DNA of 64,000 nucleotides from assembly GCA_046351235.1 (NCBI GenBank), contig JAXLYV010000014.1:2453-66452 (forward strand), in the 5' to 3' direction. Of this stretch, positions 3,561-15,562 are shown piece after piece. How positions within the stretch are numbered: position 1 is the first letter of the stretch; each line of letters begins with the position of its first letter. The notes beneath the pieces were generated by a model that was given only the letters and a program-made list of their open reading frames with translations, was not told where the DNA came from and searched no databases. Both the position numbers and the translations under genes were made by a program. This stretch comes from Sandaracinus sp. (GTDB lineage Bacteria; Myxococcota_A; Polyangia; Polyangiales; Sandaracinaceae).

Positions 3561-6164
3561 ATGGCTTTCGCTTCGCGCCGCGCCGCGGCCCTCTGTGTGT
3601 CGTCTTTCGCTACGCTCGCCGCGACGCTGCTCTCGGGATGCGGTGGCGACACTTCCACGTCGGTCGACGACGACGCCGCTCTCGACGCGGCCTTCGATGC
3701 GAGCGCCGACGCGGCACGGCTCGACGGCGCGTCGGAAGACTCGGCGCGCACCGGCGGTGACGGCGGCTGCCCCGACGCCGACGGAGACGGTGCTCGGGCT
3801 GCGAGCTGCGGCGGGACCGACTGTGACGACGCCGATCCGGAGGCGTACCCCGGGCACATGGAGGTCTGCGACGCCGCGCACCGCGACGAGGACTGCGACC
3901 CATCGACCGTGGGCTTCCGTGACCAGGACTCGGACGGCTACTTGGACGCGGCCTGTTGCAACGGCGCGCTCTGCGGTGACGACTGCAACGACACCCGTCC
4001 CACGGCGCATCCCGGTGGAACCGAGGCTTGCGACTCCTTCGACAACGACTGCGATGCCGCGATCGACGAGGGCGTGCTCGAGACCTTCTATCCGGACACC
4101 GACGGCGACGGTTTCGGCAACGCGGCCGGCACCACCATCACCGGGTGCACCATTCCTCCGGGCTATTCGTCGCTCGCCGACGCGACCGACTGCGACGACA
4201 CCGTTCGCGGGGTCAACCCGAGCGCCATGGAGATCTGCGACGCTGCGATGGTCGACGAGAACTGTGACGGCGTGCACAACCCCGTGGCGCTGTGCGCGTG
4301 CAATGCCGGCGATCCGCCGCGTGCGTGCACGTTGCCGGGCATCTGCGCCAGCGGTCGCGAGATGTGCAGCGACGGCGCGTGGGGCATGTGCACGGTCATG
4401 CCACGCGGCGAGAGCTGCAACGGCCTCGACGACGACTGCGACAACGCGGTCGACGAGACGCTGACGATCGTCTGCTACGCCGACACCGACAACGACACGT
4501 ATCCGGATGGGCTCGGTGCGGCCCAGTCCACGCCGTGCCCCGACGCTTCGAGGACGAGCGTGGGAGGCTGCCCGTCGGGCACGACGAACCGCGTCCCCGA
4601 CGCGAGCAACGTGGACTGCGGCCCGAGCGACTCGACCGTGCATCCCCTCGCCGTCGAGATCTGCAACGACGTGGACGACGACTGCCAGGGTGGCATCGAC
4701 GAAGGCGTCTCGTCGCAGTGCTACGCGGACGTCGACAACGACACCTACTCTCCCGCAGGCGCGACCCCTTCGCGGCGCTGTCAGGATCCGTCCCGCGGCG
4801 CGGTCGGCTTCTGCCCGACGGGCTTCACGAATCTGGCGCCGGGCGGCCAGCCCGACTGCGACGACGCAGCGTTCGGTACGCACCCCGGCGCGCTCGAGCT
4901 CTGCGACGGAGCGAGCGCCGACGAGGACTGTGACGGCATGCACAACGAGGGCTGCAACTGCACCGTCACGGGCTCGCCGGTGAGCTGCCAGACGGCGCTC
5001 GGCGCGCAAGGGCGCTGCGCGTCGGGCACGACGACGTGCGTGGCGGGCATGTGGAGCGCGTGCTCCGTGCAGGCCGTGACGGAGACCTGCAACGGGATGG
5101 ATGACGACTGCAACGGCGCCGTCGACAACGGCGTGCTCGTCGCGTGCTGCGTCGATGCGGACAACGACGGCTCGGTCGTGACGCTGACGCCCGCGATGAG
5201 CGCGTGCAGCTGTCCTTCGGGCTACCGAGTGTGCCCGGCCGCTGGCACGCCGGTGGACTGCAACGACTCCTCGGCCGCGATCCACCCGGGCGCGACCGAG
5301 CTCTGCAATCGCGTGGACGACGACTGCTCGACCGGCGGCGGCGTCGTGAGCGCCGAGGACGCCGACCTCGACAACTACGCGAGCCCGTCGGCGGCCTGCA
5401 GCGGGGGCTTTCCGCGGACGGACTGCAACGACGCGGCGGCCGCCGTGCACCCGGGCGCGGCCGAGGTCTGCAACGGCGTCGACGACAACTGCGCGGCCGG
5501 GATCGACGAAGGCGTCACGACTCGCTACTACCGTGATGCCGACGTCGACAACTACGGTGCGGCCGCCACGTTCGTGGATGGGTGCACGCCGCCCGGCGGC
5601 TACGTCACGAACGCCAGCGACTGTGACGACACGCGCAGTGACGTGCGGCCCGGCGCGCCCGAGCTCTGCGACGGCGTGTGGAACAACTGCACGAACGGCA
5701 GCGGAGCGCGCTCGGCCGAGGATGCCGACGGCGATCACCATGCACCGACGTCGGGCGGCGCCGGGCTCTGCAGTGGAGGCTATCCGCGCGACGATTGCGC
5801 CGATCTGACGGCGACCGCGTATCTGGGCGCGACCGCGTACCGCGACGCGCCCTATTGCACGAACGGGCGCACGCCGATCTCGTGCACGTCGGGGCTCGGG
5901 ACGAGCCTCCAGTGTGGCACGACGTGCCTGCCACCCGGCTCCGCCGTCTACGCCACGTTCGACTACAACTGCATGAACGGCGAGGAGCCGGAGCCCGTCG
6001 CGACGAGCTGCACGGGCGGCTGCTTGGTCATGGGCAGCACCTGCCGCGACGGTCCGACGACGAGCGGCGTGATCTGCGGCGCGATGACCACGTACACGGA
6101 CTGCTCGTGCAGTGTCACCTGCAGCCTGGTCGGCCATCCGACGCGACCCCAGGCCTGCCGCTGA
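3561..6164 (+). CDS. Large lipoprotein built from MopE-type 'putative metal-binding' Cys/Asp repeats
   Basis: Lipoprotein signal MAFASRRAAALCVSSFATLAATLLSGC. At least eight repeats of the pattern DCDD-x-D-x3-PG-x-E-x-C-(D/N)-x-DDDC-(D/N/Q)G, for example DCDDADPEAYPGHMEVCD, CNDVDDDCQGGIDEG, CNGVDDNCAAGIDEG. They alternate with D-x-D-x-D-G/Y calcium-type motifs (YPDTDGDGFG, YADTDNDTYP). Confidence 0.85.
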   Translation: MAFASRRAAALCVSSFATLAATLLSGCGGDTSTSVDDDAALDAAFDASADAARLDGASEDSARTGGDGGCPDADGDGARAASCGGTDCDDADPEAYPGHMEVCDAAHRDEDCDPSTVGFRDQDSDGYLDAACCNGALCGDDCNDTRPTAHPGGTEACDSFDNDCDAAIDEGVLETFYPDTDGDGFGNAAGTTITGCTIPPGYSSLADATDCDDTVRGVNPSAMEICDAAMVDENCDGVHNPVALCACNAGDPPRACTLPGICASGREMCSDGAWGMCTVMPRGESCNGLDDDCDNAVDETLTIVCYADTDNDTYPDGLGAAQSTPCPDASRTSVGGCPSGTTNRVPDASNVDCGPSDSTVHPLAVEICNDVDDDCQGGIDEGVSSQCYADVDNDTYSPAGATPSRRCQDPSRGAVGFCPTGFTNLAPGGQPDCDDAAFGTHPGALELCDGASADEDCDGMHNEGCNCTVTGSPVSCQTALGAQGRCASGTTTCVAGMWSACSVQAVTETCNGMDDDCNGAVDNGVLVACCVDADNDGSVVTLTPAMSACSCPSGYRVCPAAGTPVDCNDSSAAIHPGATELCNRVDDDCSTGGGVVSAEDADLDNYASPSAACSGGFPRTDCNDAAAAVHPGAAEVCNGVDDNCAAGIDEGVTTRYYRDADVDNYGAAATFVDGCTPPGGYVTNASDCDDTRSDVRPGAPELCDGVWNNCTNGSGARSAEDADGDHHAPTSGGAGLCSGGYPRDDCADLTATAYLGATAYRDAPYCTNGRTPISCTSGLGTSLQCGTTCLPPGSAVYATFDYNCMNGEEPEPVATSCTGGCLVMGSTCRDGPTTSGVICGAMTTYTDCSCSVTCSLVGHPTRPQACR

Positions 6165-6207
6165 TCCACTGGCACGGCTCGCCGCGAGGACTATCTTCGC
6201 GCCCGCC

Positions 6208-6402
6208 GTGAGCAGCAATCGCGAGGTGCCGGCGCCGCCGGTCCACAAGTCCCCGGAAGAGCAGCGCGAGGATCGCTTCCGCGTGATGCTCGCGTTCGGC
6301 AGCGCGCTGATCCTCGTCTCGGCGCTCTCGTGCTGCTGCGTGGGGAGCGCGCTCGTCTCGAGCACCGACGACGGGCACCAGACCTCGCGCCGCCATCGGT
6401 GA
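6208..6402 (+). CDS. Possible small membrane protein (64 aa)
   Basis: The GTG at 6208 lies in the frame of track ORF 6112..6402. The product has one hydrophobic span (MLAFGSALILVSALSCCCVGSALV). Third codon positions are almost all G/C. I recognise no homology. Confidence 0.35.
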   Translation: MSSNREVPAPPVHKSPEEQREDRFRVMLAFGSALILVSALSCCCVGSALVSSTDDGHQTSRRHR

Positions 6403-6439
6403 GGTGAGCCTTCCGCGGCGGGTGTAGGCTCGCTGCGGG

Positions 6440-7288
6440 ATGCCGAACCTCCGCCTGAAGCAGAAGACCAACCTCTCGTCGTTCCGACGCATCGCGATCG
6501 GCACGTGGCGCACCGCCTACGACCCGACGGTCTACGGCACGCTCGCGCTCCGCGCCGACAAGGTGCTCGCGTACGTCGACGCCATCCGCCAGCGCACCGG
6601 CAAGCGCGTGACGCTCTCGCACCTGATGGCGAAGGCCGTCGCGATCACGCTCTCGGAGATGCCCGACGCGAACGCGATCCTGCGTCGCAACCGCATCTAC
6701 CTGCGAGAGGACATCGGCGTGTTCTTCCAGGTCGCGCTCGAAGACGACGAGACGGGTGAGATCGACCTGAGCGGCGCCACGATCTTCGATGCGCAGAAGA
6801 AGTCCTTGGCCGACATCGTCACCGAGTTCGAGGGCAAGGTCGGCGCGGTCAAGAAGAAGCAGGACAAGCAGCTCGAGGGCACGCGGAGTCTCTTCAAGCG
6901 CATCCCGTATCGCTTGCTCAACTGGGTGCTCGACGTGATGGGCTATCTCAGCTTCGAGCTGAACCTCGATCTGCGTTGGGCGGGGATTCCGTCCGATCCT
7001 TTCGGCTCGGCGATGGTGACGAACATCGGCTCCCTCGGCCTCGAGGAGGCCTACGTGCCGCTCGTGCCGTACAGCCACGTGCCGCTCTTGATCGCGCTCG
7101 GCGCGGTGAAGGAAGAGCCGGTCGTGGAGGGCGGCGAGATCCGCGTCGGCAAGGTGCTGCGCGCCTTCGCGACCTTCGATCACCGCGTGCTCGACGGCAT
7201 GCACGCGGCGAAGATGAGCAAGACGCTCAAGCGGATCTTCGACGACCCGGAGAAGGAGCTCGGCGCGCTGCCGCCTCCCTCGGCGTGA
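6440..7288 (+). CDS. 2-oxoacid dehydrogenase acyltransferase (E2) catalytic-domain protein, stand-alone
   Basis: 282 aa. The C-terminal active-site motif FDHRVLDG is the DHRxxDG motif of the E2/CAT-like fold. There is no lipoyl or subunit-binding domain. Confidence 0.85.
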   Translation: MPNLRLKQKTNLSSFRRIAIGTWRTAYDPTVYGTLALRADKVLAYVDAIRQRTGKRVTLSHLMAKAVAITLSEMPDANAILRRNRIYLREDIGVFFQVALEDDETGEIDLSGATIFDAQKKSLADIVTEFEGKVGAVKKKQDKQLEGTRSLFKRIPYRLLNWVLDVMGYLSFELNLDLRWAGIPSDPFGSAMVTNIGSLGLEEAYVPLVPYSHVPLLIALGAVKEEPVVEGGEIRVGKVLRAFATFDHRVLDGMHAAKMSKTLKRIFDDPEKELGALPPPSA

Positions 7289-7337: not shown

Positions 7338-8552
7338 TTGCCAACGACGCGTCGCGTCGTGGTACAAGCGATCGCGCCGTTGCTGACGCTGATTCGTAAC
7401 GCGGACGTCTTCTCGCCCGAGCCGATCGGGAGGCGCGACGTCCTCGTGTCTGCGGAGCGCGTCGTGGCGATCGAGCCCTCGATCGAAGCGCCGCGTGGGA
7501 TCGCGTGCGAGGTCGTCGATCTCGACGGGCGCGCGCTCGTGCCGGGCCTCGTGGACGCGCACGTGCACCTCGGCGGCGGTGGCGGCGAGTCGGGGTTCGC
7601 CTCGCGCGTGCCGGCGCTCCTTCTCTCGCAGATCGCCGGTGCGGGCGTGACGAGCGTCGTCGGGCTGCTCGGCACCGACACCACCACGCGCACGATCGAA
7701 GACCTCGTCGCGCGCGCCTACGCGCTCCGTGAAGAAGGCCTCTCGGCGTGGTGCTGGACGGGAGGCTACGCCGTGCCGCCGCGCACGCTGACGGGATCGG
7801 CGCGCGGCGACATCGTCTTCGTCGACCCGATCGTGGGCGTGGGCGAGACCGCGATCAGCGACCACCGCAGCTCGCAGCCGACCTTCGAGGAGCTCGTGAA
7901 GCTCGCCGCCGACTGTCACGTCGCGGGGCTCACCACCGGCAAGGCCGGCGTGCTGCACCTCCATCTCGGCGACGGCGCGCGCGGGCTCGCGCTCGTCGAG
8001 CGTGCGCTCACCGAGACGGAGCTGCCGGCGCGCACGTTCCATCCGACGCACGTGAACCGAAAGCCGGCGCTCTGGGACGAGGCGCGCGAGCTCGCGCGCG
8101 CGACGGGCCTCGTGGTCGACGTCACGGCCTTCCCCATCGAAGGCGACGACCCGGCGATCCCCGCCGAAGACGCGATCGAGAAGTGGCTCGACGACGGGCT
8201 TCCCCGCGCGCGCCTCACCCTCAGCTCCGACGGCGGCGGGTGCCTCCCGGTGTTCGACGGCGACGGCCGCATGATCTCGATGGACGTCGGGCGCCCCTCG
8301 ATGCTGATCGACACGCTGCGCGCGCTCGTGGGGCGCGGGCGTACGCTCGGCGATGTGCTGCCCTTCTTCACGTCGAACGTGGCCGCGCAGCTGCGCTTGC
8401 CGCGCAAGGGCACGGTCGCGGTGGGCGCCGACGCGGATCTGCTCGTGCTCGATCACGGCGCGCGCCTCGACGCGGTGATGGCGCGGGGTCGATGGATGAT
8501 GCGAGAAGGGCGCGCGACGGCGCGCGGCACCTTCGAGCGCGTGGGTGGGTGA
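7338..8552 (+). CDS. iadA: Isoaspartyl (beta-aspartyl) dipeptidase
   Basis: The product aligns by eye with E. coli IadA along its whole length. Examples: LVPGLVDAHVHLGGGGGE, GVTSVVGLLGTDTTTR, EEGLSAWCWTGGY, AISDHRSSQP, FHPTHVNR, LTLSSDGGG, GADADLLVL. Confidence 0.85.
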   Translation: MPTTRRVVVQAIAPLLTLIRNADVFSPEPIGRRDVLVSAERVVAIEPSIEAPRGIACEVVDLDGRALVPGLVDAHVHLGGGGGESGFASRVPALLLSQIAGAGVTSVVGLLGTDTTTRTIEDLVARAYALREEGLSAWCWTGGYAVPPRTLTGSARGDIVFVDPIVGVGETAISDHRSSQPTFEELVKLAADCHVAGLTTGKAGVLHLHLGDGARGLALVERALTETELPARTFHPTHVNRKPALWDEARELARATGLVVDVTAFPIEGDDPAIPAEDAIEKWLDDGLPRARLTLSSDGGGCLPVFDGDGRMISMDVGRPSMLIDTLRALVGRGRTLGDVLPFFTSNVAAQLRLPRKGTVAVGADADLLVLDHGARLDAVMARGRWMMREGRATARGTFERVGG

Positions 8553-8566
8553 GAGACGAAGACGGC

Positions 8567-9400
8567 ATGCCTGCAAGACCCGAGAACGACAAGAACCGTG
8601 GCTGGATCGTCCCCGTGGGTGGGGCCGAGGACAAAGGCAATCGCGCGGAGATCCTCCGCCGGTTCGTCTCGCTCGCCGGTGGCAGCACGGCGCGCATCGC
8701 GATCATCCCGACGGCGAGCCAGCTCGAGGACACGGGGCGTCGCTACGAGACGATCTTCAAGGAGCTCGGCGCGCGCGACGCGCAGGCGCTCGCGTACAAG
8801 ACGCGCGAGGACGCCGAGCGGAAGGACTGGATGGAGATGCTGGAGACGGCGACCGGCGTCTTCCTCACCGGCGGCAACCAGCTCCGCATCTCGACGGTCC
8901 TCGGCGGCACGATGGTCGCCACGATGATCCGCCGCATGAACGCGCGTGGCGTCCCGGTCGGAGGCACGAGCGCCGGCGCGGCGATCCTCAGCGAGCACAT
9001 GATCGCGTTCGGTGCCGAGGGCGCGACGCCGCGCGCCGGCATGGCGACGCTCGCGCCGGGCATGGGCCTGACGAACCGCGTCGTCATCGACCAGCACTTC
9101 CGGCAGCGCGACCGCATCGGGCGCCTGCTCACGGCGCTCTCCTACAACCCGTTCGCGGTGGGCCTCGGCCTCGACGAGGACACGGCCGCGTTCATCGACG
9201 CCGACGACGTCGTGCACGTGCTCGGCGCGGGCGCGATCACCGTCGTGGACGCCGCGCAGCTCGAGCACTCGTCGGTCGCGTCCGCCGAGGTCGGCGACGT
9301 GATCTGCATGACGGGCGTCCGCATCCACCTCTTGCCCAGTGGTGGGCGCTTCGATCTCCAGTCCCGCAAGGCGTTCCCTCCCCCGAGCCAGGAGAGCTGA
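8567..9400 (+). CDS. cphB: Cyanophycinase (S51 peptidase)
   Basis: The ATG at 8567 lies in the frame of track ORF 7748..9400. Motifs: IAIIPTAS, VFLTGGNQ, GTSAGAAILSEHMI (catalytic Ser context), VIDQHFRQRDRIGRL. Confidence 0.9.
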   Translation: MPARPENDKNRGWIVPVGGAEDKGNRAEILRRFVSLAGGSTARIAIIPTASQLEDTGRRYETIFKELGARDAQALAYKTREDAERKDWMEMLETATGVFLTGGNQLRISTVLGGTMVATMIRRMNARGVPVGGTSAGAAILSEHMIAFGAEGATPRAGMATLAPGMGLTNRVVIDQHFRQRDRIGRLLTALSYNPFAVGLGLDEDTAAFIDADDVVHVLGAGAITVVDAAQLEHSSVASAEVGDVICMTGVRIHLLPSGGRFDLQSRKAFPPPSQES

Positions 9401-9405
9401 TCCGA

Positions 9406-12213
9406 ATGCAGATCACCGAGCGTCGCGTCTACGTCGGTCCGAACCTCTACGCGCACTTCCCCGTGGTGCGCCTCACCGTGGACCTCGAGGCGCTCGAGGA
9501 TCATCCGAGCGGCAAGATCGACGGCTTCGTCGACGGCCTCCTCAAGGCGCTGCCGGGGCTGGAGAAGCACGGCTGCTCCTACGGCGCGCACGGCGGCTTC
9601 GTGCGGCGCCTGCGCGAGGACGGCGGCACCTGGATGGGGCACGTGCTCGAGCACGTGGCGATCGAGCTGCAGGTGCTGACGGGCGCGAAGGTCAGCTTCG
9701 GCAAGACGCGGGGCACGGGCAAGACGGGCGAGTACCACGTCGTCTTCGAGTACGAAGAAGAGAACGTCGGGCTCGCCGCGGTCGATCTCGGCCAGCAGCT
9801 CATCGAGTCGCTCCTGCCGAGCAAGCTCCGCAAGGAAGGCGTGCTGCCCGAGGGGTTCGACGCGAAGGCGGAGATCCGCTCGCTCGTCGAGTACGCGCAG
9901 AAGAAGCAGCTCGGGCCCTCGACGGCGTCGCTCGTGCGCGCGGCCGAGGATCGCGGGATTCCGTGGTTCCGCCTGAACTCGCGCTCGCTCATCCAGCTCG
10001 GTCACGGCAAGTGGCAGAAGCGGATCCAGGCGACGATCACCAGCCAGACCTCGCACATCGGCGTCGAGCTCGCGTCCGACAAGGAAGAGACGAATCGGCT
10101 GCTCGGCGATCTCGGCCTGCCGGTGCCGAAGCAGCGCTGGGTGCGCAACGAGAACGAGGCCGTGCGCGCCGCCGAGCGCCTCGGCTATCCCGTCGTGGTC
10201 AAGCCGCTCGACGCCAACCACGGCCGTGGCGTCACCACGGACCTGCGCGATCCCGAGGCCGTGAAGGTCGCGTACGCGAAGGCGCGGGAACACTCGCGCA
10301 GCGTGCTCGTGGAGACGTTCCTCACCGGCTACGACCACCGCATGCTCGTGGTCGGCGGCGAGCTCGTCGCGGTCGCCAAGCGCGTCCCCGGGCACGTGGT
10401 CGGCGACGGCAAGAGCACCGTGAAGGACCTCGTCACGAAGGTGAACGAGGATCCGCGGCGCGGCATCGGCCACGAGAACGTGCTCACGCGCCTCGAGATC
10501 GATCACGAGGCCGAGCGCATGCTCGAGCGCGCCGGCAAGACGCTCGAGACGGTGCCGGCCGCGGGCGAGCTCGTGTTCCTGCGCGGCACGGGCAACCTGT
10601 CCACGGGCGGCACCGCGATCGACCTCACCGACGTCGTGCACCCGGACAACCGCGAGATGGCGGTGCGCGCCGCGCGCGCGATCGGCCTCGACGTGATCGG
10701 CGTCGACTTCATCACGCCCGACATCACGCAGAGCTACCGCGACGTGGGCGGCGGCATCTGCGAGGTGAACGCGGCGCCCGGCTTCCGCATGCACGTCGCG
10801 CCCACCGAAGGAAAGCCGCGCGACGTCGGCAAGGCCGTGATCGAGATGCTCTTCCCCTCGGGCACCGCGCCCTCGCCCGAGAAGAGCGGGCGCATCCCGA
10901 TCGCCGCGCTCACCGGCACCAACGGCAAGACCACGACGGCGCGCATGCTCGCGCACATCCACAAGATGAACGGCTCGACCGTGGGCCTCACGACGACCGA
11001 CGGCGTGTACGTCGACGGCAACCGCACCTTCGCCGGCGACATGACGGGCCCGACCGCGGCGCGCATGGTGCTGAGCGATCCGACGGTCGACCTCGCCGTG
11101 CTCGAGACGGCGCGCGGCGGCCTGCTCCGCGCCGGCATGGGCTATCGCCACTGCGACGTGGGCGCCGTGCTCAACGTGACGAGCGATCACCTGGGCCTGC
11201 ACGGCATCGACACGCTCGATCAGCTCGCGCAGCTCAAGCGCATCGTCGTCGAGGTCGCCAAGAACGTCGCGATCCTCAACGCCGACGATCCGCTCTGCCT
11301 CCAGATGGCCGATCACACCGAGGCCCAGCGCATCGGCTACGTGACGATGAACCCGCGCCACGAGCTCGTGCGCCAGCACATCCGCGAGGGCGGGCTCGCG
11401 ATCGTGTGCGAGGAGGGCATCAACGGGCACATGATCACGCTCTACGACAAGGGCGCGCACCAGCCCTTGCTCTGGACGCACCTCATCCCCGCGACGCTCG
11501 AGGGCAAGGCGACGCACAACGTGCAGAACGCGATGTTCGCCGCGATCATGGCGCACGCGATGGGCGTGAAGGCGGACACGATCCGCCAGGGCCTGCGCAC
11601 CTTCGACACGACGTACTTCCAGGCGCCGGGCCGCCTGAACGTCTACGACCAGCTGCCCTTCAAGGTCATCCTCGACTACGGGCACAACCCCGCCGCCATG
11701 CAGGTCATGGCGGATCTGGTGGGCAAGCTCGAGGTCACCGGCAAGCGCGTGCTCGTGCTCGCGGCACCGGGCGATCGCCGCAACGAGGACATCGAGGCGA
11801 TGTGCGGGATCGCGGCGCGCGCGTTCGATCGCGTGATCGTGAAGCAGGACGACGACACGCGCGGCCGCGCCTCGATGGAGGTGCCCGAGCTGATGAAGCA
11901 CGCGCTCGAGCGGGCCGGTATGCGCTCGAGCGTGATCGAGATCGTCCCCGAGGAAGAGAAGGCCATCGACCACGCGCTCCGCACGGCCGAGCGTGGCGAT
12001 CTGGTGCTCGTGCTCGCCGACAAGGTGAACCGGGCCTGGAAGCAGATCACGAAGTTCAAGCCCGACGGCGCGCCCGTCGCGACCAAGACCCAGAGCGAGC
12101 GCCCCCCCGAGCCCTCGCGCCCGGTCGACGCATCGATCACACTCGTGGGCCTTCAGGTCGTGAAGGACGAGCGCGGCGTGCGGATCGCACGCAACCAACA
12201 GAACGAAGACTGA
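9406..12213 (+). CDS. cphA: Cyanophycin synthetase (N, ATP-grasp and Mur-ligase-like domains)
   Basis: The ATG at 9406 (MQITERRVYVGPNLYAHFPVV) lies in the frame of track ORF 8545..12213. The ATP-grasp segment reads GYPVVVKPLDANHGRGV...ICEVNAAPGFRMH. The Mur-ligase P-loop is IAALTGTNGKTTTARM, followed later by ILDYGHNPAAM. Confidence 0.95.
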   Translation: MQITERRVYVGPNLYAHFPVVRLTVDLEALEDHPSGKIDGFVDGLLKALPGLEKHGCSYGAHGGFVRRLREDGGTWMGHVLEHVAIELQVLTGAKVSFGKTRGTGKTGEYHVVFEYEEENVGLAAVDLGQQLIESLLPSKLRKEGVLPEGFDAKAEIRSLVEYAQKKQLGPSTASLVRAAEDRGIPWFRLNSRSLIQLGHGKWQKRIQATITSQTSHIGVELASDKEETNRLLGDLGLPVPKQRWVRNENEAVRAAERLGYPVVVKPLDANHGRGVTTDLRDPEAVKVAYAKAREHSRSVLVETFLTGYDHRMLVVGGELVAVAKRVPGHVVGDGKSTVKDLVTKVNEDPRRGIGHENVLTRLEIDHEAERMLERAGKTLETVPAAGELVFLRGTGNLSTGGTAIDLTDVVHPDNREMAVRAARAIGLDVIGVDFITPDITQSYRDVGGGICEVNAAPGFRMHVAPTEGKPRDVGKAVIEMLFPSGTAPSPEKSGRIPIAALTGTNGKTTTARMLAHIHKMNGSTVGLTTTDGVYVDGNRTFAGDMTGPTAARMVLSDPTVDLAVLETARGGLLRAGMGYRHCDVGAVLNVTSDHLGLHGIDTLDQLAQLKRIVVEVAKNVAILNADDPLCLQMADHTEAQRIGYVTMNPRHELVRQHIREGGLAIVCEEGINGHMITLYDKGAHQPLLWTHLIPATLEGKATHNVQNAMFAAIMAHAMGVKADTIRQGLRTFDTTYFQAPGRLNVYDQLPFKVILDYGHNPAAMQVMADLVGKLEVTGKRVLVLAAPGDRRNEDIEAMCGIAARAFDRVIVKQDDDTRGRASMEVPELMKHALERAGMRSSVIEIVPEEEKAIDHALRTAERGDLVLVLADKVNRAWKQITKFKPDGAPVATKTQSERPPEPSRPVDASITLVGLQVVKDERGVRIARNQQNED

Positions 12214-12219
12214 ACCCTC

Positions 12220-13908
12220 TTGCGCCTGGTCGATGCACGCCGGCTCCGTGGCCCCACGCTCGGTGCGAGCGGCCCCGGCGCGATCGCCGAGATCGCGCTC
12301 GAGGAGGGCGAGCGCCCGGACGTCGTGATCCGCGCGTGGCGTGCCGCGCTCGCGGGCGTGCTCGCCTGGGCCGGGCGCGGCGAGGTGGGGCGCGGGCTCG
12401 AGGTGCGTCGATTCGACGGTGGGGTCGCGCTCTTCATCCCGAGCCCGGTCGACGGCGTGGATGCGACGCTCGACCTGCTCGAGTGGTCGGTGGGCTACGT
12501 CGCGGAGCGCACGAAGGGCAAGGGGTCGCCGGCGGCGCTCCGCGCGGCCTCGGAGCGGTTCCGCGAGGCGCTCGCCGCGGAGGCGAGCCCGGGCCTCGTG
12601 CGCCTGCGCGCCGAGGCGGCCGAGCGCGGGATCCCGAGCTTCGTCGACGACGAGCGCGTCACCTTCGGTCACGCCGCGCGCTCGCACACCTACGAGCGAC
12701 GCGCGCTCCCGACCGCGGTTCCGTGGCGCGAGCTCGGCGCGATTCCGGTCGCGCTCGTCACCGGCACGAACGGCAAGACGACGACGACCCGCATGGTCGC
12801 GCGCATCGCCAAGCACGCGGGGCTCGTGCCCGGGAACACGTCGTCCGACGGCATCGCGATCGGCGAGCGCATCGTGGAGCGCGGGGACAACACGGGCGGC
12901 GAGTCGGCGCGCGCGGTGCTGCGCGATCCGCGCGTCCAGATCGCGATCCTCGAGACGGCGCGCGGGGGCTTGTTGCGGCGAGGCCTCGCGGTCACCGACG
13001 TCGACGCGGCGCTCATCACGAACGTGAGCGAGGACCACCTCGGCGAGCACGGCGTGCTCGACCTCGACACGATGCGCGAGACGAAGGCCGTCGTGGGCCA
13101 CGCCGTGAAGAAGGGCGGCAAGGTCGTGCTCGGCGCCGACGACGCGGGGCTACGCGCGATGGCCAAGAGCTTTCGCGCCGAGCGCGTGCTCTTCGCGATC
13201 GACCCGCGCTCGGTGCGGGCGCACCTGCGCGCAGGCGGTCACGCGTTCACCGTCGAGCGCGGCGTCCTCGTCCACCGGGGCCCGAAGCGGCGCGAAGAGA
13301 TCGTGCGCGTGGTCGACGTCCCCGTCACCGATGGCGGTCGCGCCCTCCACAACGTGAAGAACGCGCTCGCCGCCGCGGCGCTCGCGTGGTCCCTCGGCCT
13401 CCCCACGCGGGCGATCGCCGAGGGCCTGCGGAGCTTCGGCGAGAAGCGGGGCGACAACGAAGGACGCGGGCAGCTCGCCCTCACCGACGACGGCGTGCGC
13501 GTGCTGCTCGACTTCGGCCACAACCCGGCCGCCGCGACCCATCTCTACGCGTGGGCGCGCTCGCTCGCCGGCGACGCGCGGGTGCTCGCCGTGCTCACGC
13601 AGCCCGGGGATCGGACCGACGCGGCGATCGAGGCGTTCGTCCGCAGCGTGGTCGACGCGGGGGCGCGCACGATCGTGGCGTGGGAGCGCGAGAGCTTGCG
13701 GCGTGGGCGCGAGGCAGGCGAGGTGGTGCGGGCGATCACGCGAGCGGCGCGCCAGGTGGCGCGCGGCGTGAGGGTGGTGCACGCGAGCGACGAGGCCGAC
13801 GCGATCGGCCGCGCCGTGGCGCTCGCGAAGCGAGGCGACGTGATCGTCGTCTCGCCCAGCCTCGATCGCCGGCTTCCGATCAGTGCGAGACGGACGCGTC
13901 GAGCGTGA
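12220..13908 (+). CDS. CphA-like protein with N and Mur-ligase-like (M) domains but no ATP-grasp domain
   Basis: The TTG start lies 7 nt after the cphA stop. The N-terminus MRLVDARRLRGPTLG parallels the CphA N-terminus. The segment RGIPSFVDDERVTFGH parallels CphA RGIPWFRLNSRSLIQLGH. The P-loop VALVTGTNGKTTTTRM then follows directly at about aa 180, with LLDFGHNPAAA later. Confidence 0.8.
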   Translation: MRLVDARRLRGPTLGASGPGAIAEIALEEGERPDVVIRAWRAALAGVLAWAGRGEVGRGLEVRRFDGGVALFIPSPVDGVDATLDLLEWSVGYVAERTKGKGSPAALRAASERFREALAAEASPGLVRLRAEAAERGIPSFVDDERVTFGHAARSHTYERRALPTAVPWRELGAIPVALVTGTNGKTTTTRMVARIAKHAGLVPGNTSSDGIAIGERIVERGDNTGGESARAVLRDPRVQIAILETARGGLLRRGLAVTDVDAALITNVSEDHLGEHGVLDLDTMRETKAVVGHAVKKGGKVVLGADDAGLRAMAKSFRAERVLFAIDPRSVRAHLRAGGHAFTVERGVLVHRGPKRREEIVRVVDVPVTDGGRALHNVKNALAAAALAWSLGLPTRAIAEGLRSFGEKRGDNEGRGQLALTDDGVRVLLDFGHNPAAATHLYAWARSLAGDARVLAVLTQPGDRTDAAIEAFVRSVVDAGARTIVAWERESLRRGREAGEVVRAITRAARQVARGVRVVHASDEADAIGRAVALAKRGDVIVVSPSLDRRLPISARRTRRA

Positions 13909-15562
13909 ACGGCCCCGAGAAGAAGCCGCCGAACGAGTCGACGACGAGGTAGTAGGTCCCGCCCGAGGCGACCGTCGTGTGCAGCGTGACGGCGCTGCCG
14001 ACCTCGGTTCCTTCGGCGCCCCCCACGCAGTGGGTCGCGGTCGCATCGCACGCGCTCGCGGCGTCGCCGGGGCCCAGCAGGTAGAGCGAGAGCAGCGTCT
14101 GGTCCGGCGTGAGCACGACGTCGAGCGTGTCGCCGGCGGCGAGCGTCACCGCGTAGACCACGTCGGGGCCGTCCAGGCGCGTCGTCGCGCACGTGCCGGT
14201 GTCGGGCTGCGCGGCGTAGTCGTCACGCGCCGCGAGCGTCGAGCCGCTGGTCCGTGCTGGCGCGCCCGCCGTGCCGAGCGCCAGGGCCGGCGCGCTCGCG
14301 CAGGTCTCGTTCGCGGGTGGGGTCGCGCACACGTCGGCGACGCAGACGTCCCCGGCGGCACAGCCACGGGGCGTGGTGCCGGCGAGCTCGCAGTCGGGAT
14401 CGTGCGCACCGCAGCCGCAATCGCAGTGCGCGCCGTCGCCGAAGCTCTCCGGAGCGCACGTCCACGCTGCCGGGAAGCGTGGCGCGCAGTGCCCGAGGCC
14501 GGTGTCGCTGAACAGGTGGAAGCAGCGCTCGAACGCCGCCGCGTCGCACTCGGCGTCGGTGGTGCAGAGTGGCCGACAGACTCCGTCGCCGCGGCCGGCC
14601 TGATCGCAGATGCCGTCCCAGAACGAGGTGCCCACAGGCGCGCAGTACACGCTGCCGGTGGCGCACTGCTGGCCGAAGCCGACGCTCGAGCGCAGCAGCG
14701 GCGTCGCGTCGCAGTAGCCGCGCTCCATCGCGTCGATGGCGCACACGCCACTGCTGCACGAGCGACCGGCGTCGCGGTCGCAGCTCGTCGCGCAGTAGGG
14801 CTCGAACGTCGGGCTGTCGCGACGGATCTCGCAGAGCTGGTTGCCGAGGCAGTCGACGGGATCGCGCGTGCCGTCGCAGTCGGGATCGATCACGCCGCAC
14901 GTGCACTGGCACGTGGCGCCGTCGCCGTACTGCGAGGCGGGGCAGGTCCAGCCGTCGGGCGTGAACGTCTGCATCACGTCGACGGTCGCCACCTCGAGGC
15001 AGGCGCCGCCGGGCACCGGCGTCGACATCAGCGTCGCGCCGCCGATCGTCACTTCGACGAGCCGGAGCCCCTCGAGGCGTGCGTCGAGCAGCAGGCCGAA
15101 GGGCTCGGCGCGCAGCGTGAGCGTGCCCGCGCTCGCGAAGAAGCCGTGGTCGCGCGTCAGGCCCGTGAAGGCCATCGTGCAGTGCGCGCACGTGGAGCGG
15201 TTGTCGTCGCGGCTGCCGGCGATGGAGAACGTGCCGACGTACTCGGCGTCGCCGTAGCGCTCGAACGTCAGATAGAGGGCGTAGGTCTGCCCGTCGATCG
15301 CGGGGCTGAGCGGCGCGACGTAGCTCGCCGAGACGTCGTCGATGAAGTCGACGTCGAAGGTGCCGACCGTCACCGGGATGCAGCCGCTCGAGGCATCCGG
15401 GCCCGCGTCGCCGATGCGCACGTCGGGCGTGGCGTCGGCGGCTCCCGCGTCACGCCCGCCGTCGACCGGATCGGCCGGAGACGGCCCCGGGCATGCGCTC
15501 GCGGAAGTGGCCCAGAGGACGAGCAGAAGAGAAGAAAGGACGCGCACGCGGTGGGGCGACAT
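13880..15562 (-). CDS. Secreted Cys-rich protein with a C-terminal beta-sandwich-like (PPC-type?) module
   Basis: Signal peptide MSPHRVRVLSSLLLVLWATSASAC. Two copies of the motif (Y/F)GDGA-x-C-x-C-x-CG-x2-DPDC: CPASQYGDGATCQCTCGVIDPDCDG and CAPESFGDGAHCDCGCGAHDPDCE. The C-terminal ~130 aa resemble the C-terminus of the 18616..20025 product. Confidence 0.75.
   Translation of the reverse strand: MSPHRVRVLSSLLLVLWATSASACPGPSPADPVDGGRDAGAADATPDVRIGDAGPDASSGCIPVTVGTFDVDFIDDVSASYVAPLSPAIDGQTYALYLTFERYGDAEYVGTFSIAGSRDDNRSTCAHCTMAFTGLTRDHGFFASAGTLTLRAEPFGLLLDARLEGLRLVEVTIGGATLMSTPVPGGACLEVATVDVMQTFTPDGWTCPASQYGDGATCQCTCGVIDPDCDGTRDPVDCLGNQLCEIRRDSPTFEPYCATSCDRDAGRSCSSGVCAIDAMERGYCDATPLLRSSVGFGQQCATGSVYCAPVGTSFWDGICDQAGRGDGVCRPLCTTDAECDAAAFERCFHLFSDTGLGHCAPRFPAAWTCAPESFGDGAHCDCGCGAHDPDCELAGTTPRGCAAGDVCVADVCATPPANETCASAPALALGTAGAPARTSGSTLAARDDYAAQPDTGTCATTRLDGPDVVYAVTLAAGDTLDVVLTPDQTLLSLYLLGPGDAASACDATATHCVGGAEGTEVGSAVTLHTTVASGGTYYLVVDSFGGFFSGPFTLDASVSH

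Follow-up and report, generated by a model that had tools for sequence, protein, structure and literature searches.

A putative cyanophycin synthetase paralogue without an ATP-grasp domain, encoded next to cphA in Sandaracinus sp.

In this work, we describe a second cyanophycin-synthetase-like gene located immediately downstream of cphA in Sandaracinus sp. (assembly GCA_046351235.1, contig JAXLYV010000014.1, positions 2,453 to 66,452 of the forward strand; these 64,000 nucleotides (nt) are called the window, and positions are counted from its first letter). The gene, at 12220..13908 on the + strand, encodes a protein of 562 amino acids (aa) that keeps counterparts of the N domain and of the Mur-ligase-like M domain of cyanophycin synthetase 1 (CphA1) but lacks the ATP-grasp (G) domain. 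This N plus M architecture, first proposed in a sequence-only reading of the window, was borne out by domain scans, a structure model, a fold search with the N region alone and profile-profile alignment. In the usual teaching, a single enzyme, CphA1, makes cyanophycin, and CphA2 is its one known reduced form. The G-less family is apparently an undescribed reduced variant (N and M, no G) complementary to CphA2. We propose that the G-less protein is probably a stand-alone ATP-dependent ligase that would decorate free Asp side chains at the ends of cyanophycin chains in trans; its substrate, product and action in trans are what we infer, and its architecture and homology, the intactness of its catalytic residues, the purifying selection on it, the size of its family and its strict linkage to cphA are what the analysis shows.

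The M domain, which extends from residue 173 to 550, is recognizable at the sequence level. Residues 173-544 align by BLASTP with residues 496-870 of the neighbouring CphA (37% identity, E 2e-59), and the P-loop (VALVTGTNGKTTTTRM) and LLDFGHNPAA motifs by which the domain had been noticed in the sequence-only reading are both present. Pfam placed the protein in the Mur ligase superfamily, with Mur_ligase_M (PF08245) at 180-389 (79.9 bits, cutoff 24) and Mur_ligase_C (PF02875) at 415-547 (56.4 bits, cutoff 28.4); no hit to an ATP-grasp family reached E <= 0.01. Seven such families were found in the neighbouring CphA, along with PF18921 and both Mur-ligase domains. The best NCBIfam match of the G-less protein was TIGR02068 (349 bits), restricted to model positions 475-847. 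The whole-protein cutoffs for CphA1 were missed (349 bits against 850 for TIGR02068 and 302 bits against 877 for NF010623, within model positions 475-849). A profile of the family matched the CphA1 structure 7lg5 in the PDB with an E value of 1e-107.

Based on Pfam, TIGR02068 and residue mapping, Mcore, the Mur-ligase central domain, corresponds to residues 173-408 (12736..13443, +) and includes the P-loop TGTNGKTT (12760-12783, +) and the catalytic pair D272-H273 (13033-13038, +). Mlid, the Mur-ligase C-terminal domain delimited by Pfam, corresponds to residues 409-550 (13444..13869, +), in which R416 and H434 are kept. The M-domain residues described for TeCphA1, namely N497, K499, T500, T522, E558, F692, R731 and H748 (PMC9427784), map to N184, K186, T187, S209, E245, H377, R416 and H434 of the G-less protein, respectively, and the pair D585/H586 used to inactivate the M domain of SuCphA1 (PMC9262961) maps to D272/H273. 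The ATP, Mg and catalytic residues were invariant, or changed conservatively (S/T at 209, H/Y at 377), in all 44 family members aligned. As judged from these residues, the M site looks catalytically competent.

The N-terminal region was far more elusive. Compared with the neighbouring CphA by BLASTP, the first ~170 residues gave nothing significant; the first ~180 residues contain no Pfam domain, PF18921 included; and an hmmsearch of the PDB with a family profile of 44 sequences returned no match to the CphA1 N domain. Because all three methods missed the N domain, sequence-level searches alone would wrongly suggest a novel N terminus. When compared by profile-profile alignment (hhalign) with 59 CphA1 N domains from the fetched loci, on the other hand, the first 54 columns aligned with 87% probability (E 4e-6). 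When the CphA1 alignment was extended into the G domain, residues 1-158 aligned with CphA 1-208 (82%, E 1e-5), with two confident stretches: an N-terminal beta-hairpin plus helix, and residues ~120-158. Global mode (-glob) gave a probability of 50% and an unreliable middle, and the local alignments were used instead.

Structure models told the same story. The AlphaFold2 model of the whole protein, with a predicted local distance difference test (pLDDT) score of 94.2 and a predicted template modelling score (pTM) of 0.93, passes from N straight to M. Its top PDB matches in Foldseek were CphA1 structures (E ~1e-38), with alignments running across whole chains of 870 aa. The template modelling score over the query (TMq) was 0.78-0.83 against CphA1 (0.70 for 7txv) and 0.48-0.54 for M-only matches such as MurE. 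Since whole-chain TMq exceeds M-only TMq, N and M would be placed as in CphA1, with G as the sole gap. A model of residues 1-172 alone (pLDDT 93.9) had CphA1 or CphA2 structures as its best 13 PDB matches (E 9e-6 to 2e-3, TMq 0.47-0.61), and the sole further match of high probability was another CphA1 chain. We conclude from these models and profiles that residues 1 to ~120 form a diverged CphA N domain, whose homology is visible only at the level of fold and profile. The N-like domain thus covers residues 1-~122 (12220..12585, +).

The second confident stretch of the extended alignment (P-x-L-x-A-L..A-A..R-G-[IV]-P-F-L-x-D-D..V-T-L-G, residues 120-158) aligns with CphA ~166-208. In TeCphA1, the N domain spans residues 1-161 and the G domain 162-487 (PMC9427784), and we read residues ~123-160 (12586..12699, +) as what is left of the first ~45 G-core residues. 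The sequence-only reading had held that the first ~170 residues parallel the CphA N domain. That parallel stands for residues 1-~120, by hhalign and Foldseek; residues ~120-158 correspond to early G instead. One of the motif pairs it had offered in support, RGIPSFVDDERVTFGH against RGIPWFRLNSRSLIQLGH, is a real likeness that falls in the remnant and not in N. Similarly, the ATP-grasp domain that it reported missing is indeed absent, but the missing part measures ~290 aa (CphA ~209-495, comprising the lid, the omega region and most of the core) rather than ~330, and a short remnant was kept. No cryptic ATP-grasp fold is hidden in the protein, only this Gcore remnant of ~40 aa. Because the remnant is kept, the sequence argues that ~290 G residues were lost internally from a complete CphA1, rather than that the protein is a primitive form preceding domain fusion; it is on the Gcore remnant that the direction of change rests.

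The N domain of the G-less protein would also be silent as a peptidase. In most CphA1 enzymes a metallopeptidase motif, Cx19HxxEH, makes primers (PMC9262961); it occurs in ~80% of them, being typical rather than obligatory. A Cx(n)HxxEH motif was found in 59 of 59 sampled CphA1 enzymes, including the partners of G-less genes, and HxxEH in none of the 44 members of the G-less family, where [DE]85-x-N87-E88-W89 takes its place. The mapping of this equivalent position is of low confidence, though consistent with the invariant GG and E88 columns.

G-less proteins make up a sizeable family. We found more than 100 full-length homologues (~560 aa) with 40-80% identity, and conservation among them includes the first 170 residues. 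When an N-region profile was searched against representatives of clusters at 50% identity that stand for 1.84 billion proteins, 772 clusters had E <= 1e-3 and 523 had E <= 1e-10; the best 150 of the 772 were all <=645 aa long, so that no fusion of this N type to a G domain was seen among them. The main family was found in Myxococcota, Acidobacteriota, Planctomycetota and Proteobacteria, and species-representative genomes with full-length members include those of Nannocystis, Plesiocystis pacifica SIR-1, Planctomycetaceae, Acidobacteriota, Thermoanaerobaculia, Lysobacterales, Steroidobacteraceae, other Gammaproteobacteria and Rubrivivax. These ~560-aa orthologues, present in many phyla and in several cases in another frame or strand than cphA, show that the gene is not a fusion broken by a frameshift. 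A spurious frame favoured by high G+C (~72% in the window) and a frameshifted piece of cphA were likewise rejected, as the orthologues are separate genes in other frames, strand and positions.

A CphA1 gene was present within ~2 kb of the G-less gene in all ten genome loci retrieved with flanks (L005-L014), as in Luteimonas lutimaris (L010), where the member lies directly 3' of cphA. The four-gene order of the window (isoaspartyl dipeptidase, cyanophycinase, cphA, G-less gene) recurs in L001, L084, L086, L087 and L088; L002 and L085 show another arrangement, in which the gene still adjoins cphA and cyanophycinase. At one of the ten loci, from a Thermoanaerobaculia metagenome-assembled genome (MAG; L007), the cphA beside the G-less gene (~11719-13753, -) seems interrupted, with an open reading frame (ORF) of 678 aa and a partial G domain. 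A frameshift, a pseudogene or an error in the assembly could account for this.

A short G-less form (~550-600 aa) occurs in Actinobacteria (Kribbella, Terrabacter, Nocardioides) and Chloroflexi at <=10 kb from CphA1 (L019, L070 (Kribbella), L077, L083 (Terrabacter), L059, L036, L028, L080, L078, L081). Its N region is shorter, begins with ELRVLDGPNLYFPRPAIKLTLD and is visibly CphA-N-like. Proteins of this form, whose start reads ELRVLDGPNLYF..., have no RGIP remnant, carry H-V-V-R-R where CphA1 has HxxEH and share a strictly conserved YLRGR in Mlid. In the actinobacterial subfamily, the ATP, Mg and catalytic residues of the M domain are also invariant.

The M motifs and the N peptidase motif were intact in the partner CphA1 of 12 of 12 main-family loci and of 7 of 7 loci with the short form. 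Since the partners keep both, the G-less gene is not a substitute for a dead domain, and compensation for a defective CphA1 was rejected on the same grounds. In a rough neighbour-joining tree of M domains (midpoint-rooted, with no outgroup or support values, and with one non-CphA Mur ligase in the fetched loci), the G-less proteins formed one clade apart from all CphA1 enzymes, and their partner CphA1s formed another, branching broadly as the G-less clade does. This sequence evidence suggests that the G-less gene and its partner CphA1 are an old, co-inherited pair.

Neither Pfam nor NCBIfam holds a model specific to the family, and its members are named in their sources as 'Mur ligase family protein', 'cyanophycin synthetase' or 'UDP-N-acetylmuramyl tripeptide synthase'. 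We found no description of a G-less CphA paralogue in the full-text literature that was searched, a cyanophycin bioinformatics paper included, although older surveys may mention one. Two divergent sequences annotated as 'MurE/MurF' that group with CphA in one phylogenomic paper (PMC11915815) may be members. The name 'CphA3', which did turn up, belongs to an unrelated beta-lactamase.

Selection on the gene was estimated by comparing window positions 12220-13908 with the 79%-identical orthologue in L088 (7001-8716), and cphA (9406-12213) with its counterpart there (4187-6994). The ratio of nonsynonymous to synonymous substitution rates (dN/dS) was 0.16 for the N part (N') and 0.26 for M, compared with 0.06 for cphA. 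The G-less gene is under purifying selection. The synonymous rate is also higher in the G-less gene than in the adjacent cphA for the same genome pair (dS 0.50-0.67 against 0.22), and the joint excess of dN and dS could reflect a stronger codon bias in cphA or separate histories of the two genes.

How might such a protein work? In the mechanism that we favour, an undecorated Asp would have its free beta-carboxyl activated at the M active site at the expense of ATP and then joined there to an amino acid, so that the G-less protein would serve as an extra or alternative decorator of chains synthesized by CphA1, which is co-transcribed with it and fully functional. Because it has no G domain, it should be unable to extend a poly-Asp backbone and, because its N domain has no HxxEH site, it should be unable to cut primers; therefore, it would act in trans on chains made by CphA1. 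The idea that such a protein decorates but does not extend, already present in the sequence-only reading, is strengthened by the invariance of the M catalytic residues and by the strict synteny with CphA1. An isolated N domain can act in trans and rescue a primer-dependent CphA1 (PMC9262961), which offers, by analogy, a precedent for trans action in the cyanophycin system. Arg is the most straightforward assumption for the amino acid in question, but the remodelling of an Mlid loop, described below, means that it could be a different one.

Several observations weigh against this proposal. A second Arg-adding site looks redundant, because both the M domain and the N peptidase motif are intact in the adjacent CphA1. 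The Gcore is the main oligomer interface of CphA1 (PMC9427784), and its absence bears on how the G-less protein would assemble and dock on CphA1. In the middle of the N domain, no likeness to the CphA1 sequence could be detected, and the uncertainty of that stretch includes the polymer-binding residues. Nonsynonymous change is ~6-12 times that of cphA (dN 0.08-0.17 against 0.014). Finally, Mlid residues conserved in CphA1 are changed, in a loop that aligns with a specificity motif of MurE, and the G-less protein may therefore take another incoming substrate than CphA1 does, and possibly another acceptor.

This last point deserves more space. Among positions conserved in 75 CphA1 M domains, those at which the G-less proteins differ are concentrated in Mlid: the GDRR motif reads GDRx, neither D796 nor F808 is kept, L, M or K takes the place of the Asp (D816) conserved in the [KQ][ED]DD stretch, and one residue is inserted ahead of the invariant RGR, yielding [YM]LRGR. 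These changes are common to both G-less subfamilies, and the remodelled loop of the window protein reads WERESLRRGR (aa 488-497). The MurE motif in question is DNPR; as the query for this alignment was an approximate C-terminal fragment of Escherichia coli MurE, the match serves as a lead only.

It is conceivable, if rather unlikely, that the same fold and chemistry yield another product, with the ligase joining an amino acid other than Arg or acting on another carboxylate of the polymer, such as the chain terminus or the alpha-carboxyl left free on the Arg branches, to give a modified or capped cyanophycin. The group-specific remodelling of Mlid in both subfamilies and the DNPR alignment point in this direction, as does the working type of Arg-adding M domain already present in the neighbouring CphA1; some CphA1 enzymes, moreover, incorporate Lys (PMC10206079). 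Against it, the specificity role of the changed residues is an analogy with the approximate MurE fragment, and the same residues could touch the polymer or mirror the lost contacts with the G domain. Extended to both forms, the G-less ligases might tentatively be regarded as a widespread and ancient cyanophycin-tailoring class that installs a non-Arg amino acid or a second branch or chain-end residue. If that were true, many non-cyanobacterial phyla would make a chemically distinct cyanophycin-like polymer that has so far gone unnoticed.

We consider it improbable that the protein is a small-molecule ligase, joining Arg to free Asp or to a short oligomer so as to form beta-Asp-Arg or primers, or to reuse degradation products. 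The M domain is intact, the operon is shared with both degradative enzymes, and the first ligations of CphA1 are very slow, primer supply being limiting (PMC9262961). However, the partner CphA1s all keep Cx(n)HxxEH and show no obvious primer deficit, and the retention of an N domain in a CphA1-like place beside Mcore argues for a polymer or oligomer as acceptor.

Less probable still is a non-catalytic partner, that is, a polymer-binding or regulatory subunit on CphA1 or on granules, or a slowly decaying duplicate. The raised dN would fit such a fate, as would the loss of the N peptidase site and of the oligomerisation core, and CphA2 shows that inactive, vestigial domains can persist (PMC10273328). 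But the M residues are invariant in 44 members, which come from several phyla, as well as in the actinobacterial subfamily; dN/dS is well under 1; and hundreds of full-length clusters exist. Such is the pattern of an active enzyme.

An unrelated Mur/FolC-type ligase of cell wall, folate or capsule metabolism that adjoins cphA by chance, as the source names of the relatives and weak NCBIfam matches to MurE, MurC, MurD and MurF could suggest, is effectively refuted by the 349 bits to cyanophycin synthetase against <=89 to any Mur enzyme (all far under their cutoffs), by the CphA fold of the N region, with no other Pfam domain in the first ~180 residues, and by the linkage to cphA at every locus examined, across phyla. 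Among the peptidoglycan Mur families of NCBIfam the best was MurE, with 88.6 bits against a cutoff of 257. MurE and the other Mur ligases share with the G-less protein the ATP-dependent amide-ligase fold of the central and C-terminal domains, the P-loop, the Mg-binding Glu, a DH-type motif and, in the loop equivalent to DNPR, a conserved Arg. The G-less protein differs from them in having a CphA N fold in place of the Pfam Mur-ligase N-terminal domain, in a genomic context of cyanophycin metabolism instead of the dcw cluster, and in its scores.

CphA1 itself (SuCphA1 7LG5/7LGQ, TeCphA1 7WAC/7WAE) resembles the G-less protein throughout M, with all catalytic residues, as well as in the N fold, in the position of N against Mcore, in the first ~45 Gcore residues, and in operon and pathway. 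What sets the G-less protein apart is the absence of ~290 G residues, and with them of the backbone-extending site and the Gcore interface, the lack of Cx19HxxEH, the remodelled Mlid loop and a score of less than half the 850-bit cutoff.

With CphA2 (8FXH/8FXI), the G-less protein has in common that it is a reduced CphA1 derivative with one catalytic domain and a silent N domain that co-exists with CphA1 (PMC10273328), and the CphA2 N domain is a structural match to its own. As the sequence-only reading had supposed, the two nevertheless differ, and their patterns are opposite: CphA2 has an N domain, a G domain that is active and an M domain that is truncated and inactive, and it polymerises beta-Asp-Arg dipeptides (PMC10273328), whereas the G-less protein has an active-looking M domain and no G, which keeps it out of the CphA2 class. 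Their ranges also differ, CphA2 being cyanobacterial and the main G-less family being spread over the four phyla named above.

The tandem cphA genes of Betaproteobacteria (L038, L043, L046, L047, L057, L068, L074, L082) are likewise two paralogues side by side, but both copies are N+G+M and fall in another part of the M-domain tree. Presumably these pairs are the cphA/cphA' of the older literature. The M match of the upstream copy is weak or partial in these pairs (59-85 bits, compared with ~260-280 for the downstream copy). Outside Betaproteobacteria, a metagenome chromosome (L029, 5620-11218) and a Polyangiaceae MAG (L041, 448-6108) also carry two full-length N+G+M cphA genes in tandem.

The finding gains weight because a sizeable family under purifying selection is tied, in at least six phyla, to one CphA1 clade. 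If its members were active trans-acting ligases, backbone extension and side-chain decoration would be separable in vivo, and the pair would provide a natural system for studying how a polymer is handed over between active sites. They might also become a tool for producing cyanophycin variants, such as Lys-rich or otherwise modified, soluble polymers, in which there is interest as biomaterials. The Gcore stub, if left by internal deletion, would represent a dated intermediate in the evolution of a multi-domain enzyme.

The ORF list agrees with the sequence-only reading in placing the 562-aa frame 7 nt past the last base of cphA; the frame has a TTG start at 12220 and a TGA stop at 13906-13908. 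The homologues open at the same residue in the family alignment (M-R-[LIV]-x-D-[AS]-R-R-L-R-G-P), and the 79%-identical orthologue has the same junction as the window, TGA, 6 nt and TTG. The TTG start is supported because the N-termini of the family align there and the closest orthologue shares this junction. The stop of cphA is the TGA at 12211-12213, and cphA and the G-less gene share a reading frame, with TGA and two codons between them (TGA ACC CTC TTG, 12211-12222). Read-through of this single stop would yield an N-G-M-N'-M fusion of ~1500 aa. The same-frame layout is also seen in L086, L087 and L088, though not in L001 and L084; being kept in some loci only, it is probably due to chance.

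The G-less gene is the last of four genes arranged head to tail on the + strand, with intergenic gaps of 14, 5 and 6 nt. The first encodes an isoaspartyl (beta-aspartyl) dipeptidase (7338..8552, +; TIGR01975, 408 bits, cutoff 331) and is followed by a cyanophycinase gene (8567..9400, +; TIGR02069, 263.7 bits, cutoff 126.6) and by cphA (9406..12213, +), whose product of 935 aa is a complete N+G+M cyanophycin synthetase 1 with intact Cx21HVLEH and M motifs (TIGR02068, 1154 bits, cutoff 850). No tRNA was detected in the window, and a scan for promoters and terminators gave nothing informative.

Downstream of the operon, a convergent gene (13880-15562, -) overlaps the 3' end of the G-less gene by 29 nt. 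It encodes a predicted secreted, Cys-rich protein of 560 aa with repeated GDG-x-C-x-C-x-CG-x-x-DPDC motifs and no NCBIfam match; the gene is kept in the orthologous locus L088, where a weak PPC domain was detected. Directly upstream of the operon, a gene at 6440-7288 (+) encodes a 2-oxoacid dehydrogenase acyltransferase catalytic domain of 282 aa that stands alone, no lipoyl domain having been detected in it, and this gene occupies the same position in L088.

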